DNA of 64,000 nucleotides, taken from NCBI RefSeq assembly GCF_024700885.2, contig NZ_CP117016.1; one strand, given 5' to 3'. The stretch's first letter is position 1. The number at the start of each line of letters is the position of its first letter. Of the stretch, positions 39,946-40,346 are shown piece after piece. The translations under genes were made by a program, and so were the position numbers. A model generated the notes under the pieces. It had not been told where the DNA came from and searched no databases. It worked only from the letters and a program-made list of their open reading frames with translations. The stretch comes from Escherichia coli (GTDB taxonomy: Bacteria; Pseudomonadota; Gammaproteobacteria; Enterobacterales; Enterobacteriaceae).

Positions 39946-40013
39946 TATTACCTAAAAAACCACATATGGATAGACAACCCATAAATACGAACAGATATTA
40001 CCTTTCAGGTAAT
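39946..40013 (+). promoter_or_regulatory. Conserved cassette copy A: TATTACC, AACCACATATG, and 17-bp palindrome ATTACCTTTCAGGTAAT
   Basis: Same three blocks in the same order recur at 57169-57248; palindrome half-sites ATTACC/GGTAAT; -35-like TAGACA nearby. Confidence 0.5.
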
Positions 40014-40049
40014 TCGCAAAACGTGCTGGATAGCAAACAAATTATTTGG

Positions 40050-40069
40050 TACTGTATAAATATACAGTT
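40050..40069. promoter_or_regulatory. LexA operator (SOS box)
   Basis: TACTGTATAAATATACAGTT = CTGT-N8-ACAG with AT-rich centre; 20 bp upstream of the start codon at 40089. Confidence 0.75.
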
Positions 40070-40088
40070 ATTGCATGGAGAAGATAAG

Positions 40089-40346
40089 ATGCAGCAGTAT
40101 CACTATCCACTGGAAGACGGATTTACCGAAAGGATTCACACGCCGGGAGGCGTCAGGTCACTGGTGGATGGATCGCACTTGATGAAATTACTCCGGGATC
40201 TCGATAAGGATGGATTTAATGTCGATGGCCCACTTGCCGAACTGACTGCACTGATTAACTACGTCACCAGCTCACAGATGTCTATGCAGGATCTGCAAAC
40301 ACATCTCGACTATTGTGCCGAACAATTACGAAAACAAACTACATAA
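40089..40346 (+). CDS. Small SOS-regulated protein of unknown function (85 aa)
   Basis: ATG with GGAG RBS 8 nt upstream, directly behind the LexA box; opposite strand to virion genes. Confidence 0.5.
   Translation: MQQYHYPLEDGFTERIHTPGGVRSLVDGSHLMKLLRDLDKDGFNVDGPLAELTALINYVTSSQMSMQDLQTHLDYCAEQLRKQTT

Follow-up and report, generated by a model that had tools for sequence, protein, structure and literature searches.

An ant-type antirepressor gene with a LexA box beside the tailspike gene of a phiV10/epsilon15-like Escherichia coli prophage

What does a small gene with a LexA box do when it stands among the late genes of a prophage, on the strand opposite to them, and which regulators does it answer to? 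This question is raised by an 85-aa open reading frame in a 64-kb stretch of DNA from E. coli MLI114, the whole of which is called the window below. The MLI114 chromosome (NZ_CP117013.1) matched the window at 100% identity on its reverse strand. The window carries part of a podovirus prophage of the phiV10/epsilon15 kind (Uetakevirus) that is inserted at the 3′ end of guaA and runs from int, beside guaA, to the lysis genes, and over that span the prophage is apparently complete. Covered by the window are the late-early genes through the lysis genes, followed by host DNA, and the immunity region lies past its right end. The region around the small gene, here called ant, matched phiV10, TL-2011b, ZX5, and other Uetakevirus phages at 95–97%. 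The gene lies on the strand opposite to the structural genes and is divergent from the 5′ end of the tailspike or tail-fibre gene (36819..39893, minus strand), and its own 3′ end faces a convergent 98-aa membrane-protein ORF on the other strand. Between these two convergent reading frames, a terminator scan and reading of the sequence located a hairpin, AGGCCGC-GAAA-GCGGCCT (40352..40369), with a 3′ T-run on the minus strand only, the ant strand having no U-tract. This minus-strand terminator (40369-40352) is the end of the upstream late transcription unit and sets the tailspike gene apart from the late genes that precede it.

The reading frame occupies 40089..40346 on the plus strand, with its ATG at 40089 and its stop codon at 40344-40346, and is preceded by the ribosome-binding site GGAG (40077..40080, plus strand), which stands 8 nt before the ATG and was invariant across an alignment of 11 diverged loci. 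The sequence-only reading of this DNA had described an 85-aa ORF with a good ribosome-binding site, opposite in strand to the structural genes, and the coordinates and the GGAG read from the sequence agree with that description. A 126-aa ORF starting from ATG 39966, as proposed by some gene callers, was rejected as a real gene because the promoter and the LexA box would fall inside it. By tblastn, the 85-aa protein was 87% identical over its full length to Ant of Salmonella phage SPC32H, the GenBank record of which labels the orthologous gene ant. A phmmer search of the PDB sequences returned a single match, chain E of 5D50, an 86-aa "Anti-repressor protein" (E=3e-47, residues 2-85). Among the PHROGs, the protein matched phrog_450 (function unknown) at E=4e-47, and its residues 28-75 more weakly matched the C-terminal part of phrog_1760, "anti-repressor". 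Pfam and NCBIfam scans gave it no significant family, with SulA, DinI, and similar families among those looked for, and no Bro-N, ANT, or KilAC domain was significant in Pfam.

The Ant family comprised 132 clusters at 90% identity, from Escherichia, Salmonella, Citrobacter, Klebsiella, Enterobacter, and other genera, and only a few of these clusters are named "Anti-repressor protein" by UniRef. An alignment of 16 sequences contained 32 invariant residues. IMG/VR held 447 confirmed ant loci, and the locus was present in 543 of 5426 complete E. coli genomes, or about 1 in 10. In the databases the gene has gone without a name in the RefSeq, phiV10, and ZX5 records alike: RefSeq labels the window ORF "hypothetical protein" (WP_025651152.1), and the phiV10 equivalent, p24, is labelled "hypothetical protein, similar to epsilon15p19".

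The LexA (SOS) box, TACTGTATAAATATACAGTT, is located at 40050..40069. Compared with the 20-mer LexA consensus TACTGTATATATATACAGTA, it had 2 mismatches, and 19 nt separate its end from the ant ATG, which bears out the earlier claim of a textbook SOS box about 20 bp upstream of the ORF. At a limit of 3 mismatches the box was the sole consensus match in the 64-kb window, and 0 of 100 dinucleotide-preserving shuffles contained a match. The bare core CTGT-N8-ACAG, which lies at 40052-40067 within the box, was seen three times in the window against 0.85 expected, and an AT-rich centre was found only in the 40050-40069 copy. We also scored the DNA with a LexA weight matrix made from 21 E. coli LexA boxes, the training sites of which ranged from 12.9 to 27.0 bits. 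The box reached 27.8 bits, above every training site, and it alone scored at least 12 bits over the window and the 22 kb holding the remaining prophage and flank.

The box was unique in the window and was also conserved across relatives. Among 71 distinct upstream sequences taken from 93 loci, the strict CTGT-N8-ACAG core was present in 64; six others, of the Klebsiella type, had ATGT-N8-ACAG, in which one half-site and the AT-rich centre are perfect, and in the last one (L056) a rearrangement had replaced the left half of the box with unrelated sequence. When the ant–tailspike regions of 11 loci, with Ant proteins 68–96% identical to the window protein, were aligned, most of the region was variable and the box was conserved while its flanks diverged. 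The conserved elements in this alignment were the tailspike start, a GC-rich hairpin, two short blocks, the arms of a palindrome, the blocks CTGGA and TnTGnTA, the box, and GGAG. The LexA–Ant–Rep switch of SPC32H was reportedly established by the genetics of Kim and Ryu in 2013 and the structural work of Kim et al. in 2016 (PDB 5D4Z, 5D50). In the 1-kb region that we compared, SPC32H and its lytic variant SPC32N had two differences, one of which was a C-to-A change converting ACAG of the box to AAAG and lowering its matrix score from 25.4 to 19.0 bits. The two genomes are said by Kim and Ryu to differ by two nucleotides in all, and the box mutation of SPC32N reportedly makes Ant constitutive and the phage lytic; the same authors are said to have found Rep uncleaved in the SOS response. 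By carrying LexA control over from the SPC32H orthologue, these comparisons support the window ORF as a LexA-box-controlled gene.

The partner of such a protein was not found in the window itself: tblastn detected no SPC32H Rep homologue there, which is explained by the window ending before the immunity region. In the same genome, a rep gene encoding 194 aa (WP_000836290.1; locus L003, 15240-15824) lies approximately 3.2–3.8 kb past the right end of the window, at a position equivalent to that of SPC32H rep. Its product matched chain A of PDB 5D50, "Repressor", over its full length (residues 1-190, E=4e-42), and was 42% identical to SPC32H Rep overall; identity was highest in the N-terminal part (54%), lower in the C-terminal domain (38%), and lowest in the linker (19%). 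Two helix-turn-helix regions were present; Pfam reported HTH domains only and did not find Peptidase_S24. Lacking a peptidase domain, Rep is thus not a self-cleaving repressor of the LexA/CI type, and RecA cannot trigger its cleavage. The protein was 100% identical to phiV10 p40, the sequence of which is that of ZX5 ORF21 (PMC9782041), and over-expression of ORF21 blocks lytic growth and shuts down lytic transcription in ZX5 (PMC9782041). SPC32H Ant binds Rep and frees it from operator DNA (PMC9638917, PMC9986798), and the C-terminal domain of Rep mediates both tetramerisation and Ant binding (PMC9986798). Because the two Rep proteins are 42% identical, and 38% in the C-terminal domain, the Ant–Rep interaction in the MLI114 prophage is something that we infer by analogy and that is not guaranteed.

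The likeness to SPC32H extended to the arrangement of the locus. Both have the gene order virion genes, small membrane protein, ant, and divergent tailspike; in both the LexA box stands at the same place relative to the ATG, with a palindrome 54.5 bp upstream of it; and both have a Rep, homologous over its full length, with two HTH regions and no protease domain, and an operator motif that surrounds rep. The window prophage differs in its host, E. coli, and in its site at guaA, in its tailspike and O-antigen-modifying genes, and in its Rep, which is of the phiV10 immunity type. Judged from these comparisons, the window ORF is an SPC32H-type Ant by every tested feature, namely sequence, box, gene order, and matching Rep. 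Of the two functions that had been suggested for the protein, antirepressor or cell-division inhibitor, it was the former that was borne out, by its 87% identity to SPC32H Ant (5D50_E), the same neighbours, and the same SOS box.

Where transcription of ant begins was examined in the ant–tailspike region. A promoter-like cassette had been proposed upstream of the box, and this part of the earlier reading failed: as the main ant promoter, TAGACA-17-GATATT (39971-39999) is weak, with 9 of 12 consensus positions, such matches were no commoner than in shuffles, and related phages do not keep its -35. A recA-like layout, with the -35 directly 5′ of the LexA core and the -10 after it, was also rejected because transcription would begin within the ribosome-binding site. 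The predicted ant promoter instead spans 40027..40055 on the plus strand and consists of a -35 TGGATA (40027-40032), a 17-nt spacer including an extended -10 TG (40047-40048), and a -10 TACTGT (40050-40055), which is the first 6 nt of the LexA box. This placement is suggested by the conserved hexamers, CTGGA and TnTGnTA being the conserved blocks from the palindrome to the box in the 11 loci, and by analogy with the p95 promoter of coliphage 186 tum, the annotated -10 of which is also TACTGT and also the first 6 nt of its LexA box. LexA on the box would cover the -10 and the transcription start of the predicted ant promoter.

The tailspike gene probably needs a promoter of its own, because the hairpin and minus-strand T-run (40369-40352) end the upstream late unit. 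A candidate tailspike promoter was placed at 39942..39970 on the minus strand, with a -35 TCCATA (39970-39965), a 17-nt spacer, and a -10 TAGAAT (39947-39942); TCCATA and TAGAAT coincide with the two most conserved blocks of that intergenic part. The predicted tailspike mRNA leader contains a GC-rich stem-loop (39913..39931, minus strand) with a conserved 8-pair consensus stem. Three of these pairs showed double changes, and the frequent G-U pairs form only in the minus-strand RNA, so that covariation lends modest support to a stem-loop in the leader.

Between the two predicted promoters lies the 17-bp palindrome ATTACCTTTCAGGTAAT (39997..40013), a perfect copy of the motif A-TTACC-N5-GGTAA-T, for which the symmetrised operator consensus is A-TTACC-(AT-rich N5)-GGTAA-T. 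In all 11 diverged loci its arms were invariant and its centre variable. The distance from the palindrome to the LexA box was 54.5 bp, centre to centre, in 46 of 46 distinct sequences having both strict motifs, most of which are closely related. Exact TTACC-N5-GGTAA occurred three times in the window against 0.02 expected, and ten times in SPC32H against 0.01 expected. A second exact copy in the window (57233..57247) stands 91 nt upstream of the first gene of the portal/structural operon, and a pair of sites (60444..60476), of which 60462-60476 is exact and 60444-60458 has one mismatch, is located at the start of the small-terminase gene; the SPC32H equivalent of this terminase-side pair is at 12-26, just upstream of terS. 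SPC32H has three copies on each side of rep, one of the six with a mismatch, as well as two after the replication gene and one each before terS, before the portal operon, and between ant and tailspike, and the MLI114 prophage and phiV10 had the same pattern. Over the 51 kb examined, 11 matches with no more than 1 mismatch were found, all inside the prophage and nine of them intergenic. The motif also precedes the integrase gene and the post-replication genes and stands ahead of most phage operons. Such a distribution is the signature of phage immunity operators, and Rep and/or a Cro-like protein therefore most likely binds the palindrome. Two other assignments were rejected. The window copy does contain ACCT-N3-AGGT, which is similar to an MqsA site, but the part conserved in relatives is TTACC-N5-GGTAA, and the distribution is that of a phage operator; a TACC-type sequence resembles the NarL heptamer, but the same conserved part and the same distribution rule this out as well.

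The dual control that had been claimed for the gene stood in one part and fell in another: the palindrome is real, has invariant arms, and is a copy of the motif found round rep, which makes a second, phage-encoded input at the ant/tailspike region plausible, whereas the promoter cassette attached to the claim is unconserved. Relative to the predicted starts of ant and tailspike, the palindrome is centred at about -57 and about -70, respectively. Since the palindrome overlaps neither predicted core promoter, simple occlusion is not evident. The role that we favour is silencing of the tailspike promoter in the lysogen, possibly together with a second lock on ant. That the ant/tailspike intergenic region as a whole is under two-input control, by LexA and by Rep or a Cro-like protein, with the latter acting as a second ant lock with positive feedback or as a direct repressor of tailspike, we put forward tentatively and rate a little short of an even chance.

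A competing view is that ant responds to LexA alone and that the palindrome is no Rep site acting on ant, being bound only by some other protein of the phage, for instance a late regulator or the Cro-like protein (WP_001282459.1) encoded divergently from rep, or serving only the tailspike promoter. Its location outside both predicted core promoters would suit this view, and the presence of the motif before the terminase, portal, and integrase genes would fit a general promoter-associated site; moreover, in lambdoid phages the repressor and Cro share operators. Against it, copies of the motif are grouped, two or three together, to either side of rep, as is classical for immunity operators, and the spacing from palindrome to LexA box is fixed in the 46 sequences described above, although these are mostly close relatives. 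We regard it as a real possibility, but one clearly below even.

Much less can be said for the two views that dispute the function of the protein itself. Small LexA-controlled prophage genes that encode effectors exist, and one might suppose that the 85-aa protein, which Pfam and NCBIfam leave without a significant family, is an SOS-induced anti-host effector (a division inhibitor, a toxin, or a DinI-like modulator) and not an antirepressor. This supposition has next to nothing left in its favour when set against the 87% identity to a protein crystallised with its repressor, the lack of a DinI match in Pfam, and the homologous domain that forms the C-terminus of Bro-N "anti-repressor" proteins, including ZX5 ORF4, over-expression of which favours lytic growth (PMC9782041). 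It is also very unlikely that the ant module is a non-functional remnant, either in a cryptic prophage or with an Ant that no longer fits its Rep. The C-terminal domain of Rep, only 38% identical to that of SPC32H, could be read in this way; however, the prophage looks complete, and nothing is disrupted in the ant reading frame, in the ribosome-binding site before it, or in the box; the viable phages phiV10 and ZX5 have an identical Rep and essentially the same ant region, and relatives of the same species are inducible by DNA damage.

We thus hold with high confidence the explanation that the ORF is ant, an SOS-controlled antirepressor gene of a phiV10/epsilon15-like prophage, whose product acts on Rep. 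Homology, box, gene order, matching Rep, and operator distribution are its sequence side; LexA control and the disassembly of Rep by Ant are taken from work on the SPC32H orthologue and would apply here by analogy. In the lysogen, host LexA would occupy the 20-bp box and ant would stay silent, because the box overlaps the -10 and the start of the predicted ant promoter. Upon DNA damage, RecA would become active, LexA would cleave itself, and ant would be transcribed. Ant would then bind the C-terminal domain of the non-cleavable, 194-aa Rep and split the DNA-binding Rep tetramer into dimers, whereupon Rep would come off its operators (ATTACC-N5-GGTAAT) and the lytic genes would be turned on. 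Because the divergent promoters of ant and tailspike have one of these operators between them, the ant/tailspike region is probably also acted on by Rep, or by a Cro-like protein using Rep sites; there the palindrome most likely keeps the separately transcribed tailspike gene silent in the lysogen, and it may add a second lock, and thus positive feedback, on ant. ZX5, whose box, palindrome, and Rep are identical to those of the window prophage, is induced by mitomycin C (PMC9782041), and a DNA-damaging microcin induces phiV10-species prophages 21- to 47-fold (bioRxiv 10.64898/2026.05.26.727859).

The proposed switch resembles that of coliphage 186, in which Tum, likewise a small LexA-controlled protein, inactivates a non-cleavable repressor. 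Ant and Tum gave no BLASTP alignment at E≤100, and tum differs in its place, at the end of the early region of a P2-like myovirus and not beside a tailspike gene. The SPC32H authors reportedly consider their own Ant a distinct class. Tum has 146 aa, and its second half is DinI-like (PMC3121763). GfoA, GftA, and GfhA of the Gifsy phages and AntC of N15 are also small LexA-controlled antirepressors, encoded far from the immunity region, that bind a non-cleaved repressor, and some antirepressors of this type act in trans on the repressors of other prophages (PMC3121763). By their description they are like Ant in logic; they differ in that their genes stand second in a dinI-antirepressor-irsA operon of siphovirus-type prophages (PMC3121763).

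An antirepressor gene beside the tailspike gene, as with ant in the window, has a parallel in the immI region of P22. In this temperate podovirus, the late region has ant next to tailspike gene 9, and P22 Ant, of about 300 aa, is controlled by Mnt and Arc, not by LexA. Because P22 C2 is RecA-cleavable (PMC3121763), P22 Ant is not the normal route of SOS induction. Closer to the window, part of Ant recurs in Bro-N proteins such as phiV10 p23 and ZX5 ORF4: residues 150-223 of ORF4 were 41% identical to Ant residues 2-75 (E=3e-15). These Bro-N "anti-repressor" proteins differ from Ant in having 231 aa and an N-terminal Bro-N domain, and only the C-terminal module is common to both. It is ORF4 that has been tested as an antirepressor in ZX5 (PMC9782041). 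A second Ant-like domain followed downstream of ant in 68 of 93 related loci; the window has no Bro-N gene and in its place has the 98-aa membrane-protein ORF on the other strand.

The position of ant, which had been thought unusual, proved otherwise, as all the relatives examined had the gene in the interval from the last virion-protein genes to the tailspike gene. This position, divergent from tailspike, was the same in SPC32H, phiV10, ZX5, and 8 diverse enterobacterial and metagenomic loci and, on these genomes, is the norm for Uetakevirus. The LexA–Ant–Rep mechanism is already known from the 87%-identical orthologue, and the feature is an ordinary one for its phage group. It thus offers little new biology, and what interest remains attaches to the copy of the operator next to ant and to where the operator occurs across the genome. 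Several consequences are practical. The "hypothetical protein" of RefSeq, phiV10, and ZX5 can be annotated as ant. The proposed switch would explain how DNA-damaging drugs and bacteriocins induce phiV10-type prophages despite a repressor without a cleavage domain. The work on ZX5 put just the neighbouring Bro-N "anti-repressor" to the test and missed the small gene under LexA control. The spread of the operator motif, including the copy beside ant, gives a modest lead on late-gene silencing in Uetakevirus: since the operator precedes the terminase, portal, integrase, and post-replication genes, the repressor, if the motif is indeed its site, may silence late operons directly and not via a late-activator cascade.

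Many gene callers report an N-terminally extended version of ant, the 85-aa antirepressor gene, of 126 or 127 aa, which starts at an ATG at position 39966 (window 39966-40346) and spans the operator, the promoter and the LexA box. One 90%-identity cluster of the extended version holds 833 member sequences. The extended form appears to reflect a start-site error that recurs systematically across public protein sets. As for the LexA box itself, in the related locus L056 (IMG/VR contig IMGVR_UViG_2563366870_000004) its left half and all sequence 5′ of it were replaced by unrelated DNA, leaving only ...CATAAACATACAGTT before the ribosome-binding site of ant; this locus may be a natural variant without LexA control.

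Downstream of ant, a 12-bp perfect palindrome, GTGACATGTCAC (window 40371-40382), lies directly 3′ of the terminator hairpin of ant. It overlaps the stop codon with which a 98-aa membrane-protein ORF on the minus strand ends (40378-40674; phrog_3075, function unknown). In phiV10 (L001, 6479-6493), the operator-like sequence TTACCGCAAAGGTAA is found just 3′ of ant, where it forms the middle of a long hairpin with perfect pairing; the phiV10 record annotates this hairpin as the terminator after ant. A 57-aa hydrophobic ORF is also present on the minus strand (window 40687-40860); it has no RefSeq annotation in the source genome, and both SPC32H, the Salmonella phage with a characterised Ant orthologue, and phiV10 carry a "putative integral membrane protein" in the same position.

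A second Ant-like domain, 38-41% identical to Ant residues 2-79, was detected in 68 of the 93 related loci. There it forms the C terminus of a Bro-N "anti-repressor" of 231 aa whose gene lies downstream of ant, as exemplified by L022 (4727-5422) and by ORF4 of phage ZX5 (L103, 2263-2958). The gene for this Bro-N protein is absent from the 64-kb window.

Elsewhere in the prophage, the 3′ end of an acyltransferase gene (35644-36768, plus strand) is made up of a perfect 8-bp tandem repeat of the unit GCACAGCA, which is present in 42.75 copies (36419-36760) and is translated into an (AAQQHSST)n tail. The length of this unit is not divisible by 3. Among acyltransferase genes at least 99.5% identical in other E. 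coli genomes, copy numbers of about 1, 16.75, 22.9, 50.75 and 52.75 were found, and the ORF ranged from 267 to 416 aa depending on copy number. The array is a hypervariable repeat, and the gene that carries it is likely an O-antigen-modifying gene.

Copies of the operator motif TTACC-N5-GGTAA are spread across the prophage, at 57233-57247 and 60444-60476 in the window and at 10084, 15106, 15168, 15880, 15928, 18211 and 18273 in L003, the source-genome locus that holds the repressor gene rep. There are copies on each side of rep; further ones lie ahead of the portal operon, the small-terminase and integrase genes and the genes that follow the replication module. This placement, before several operons and around rep, suggests that one DNA-binding protein acts on most phage promoters.
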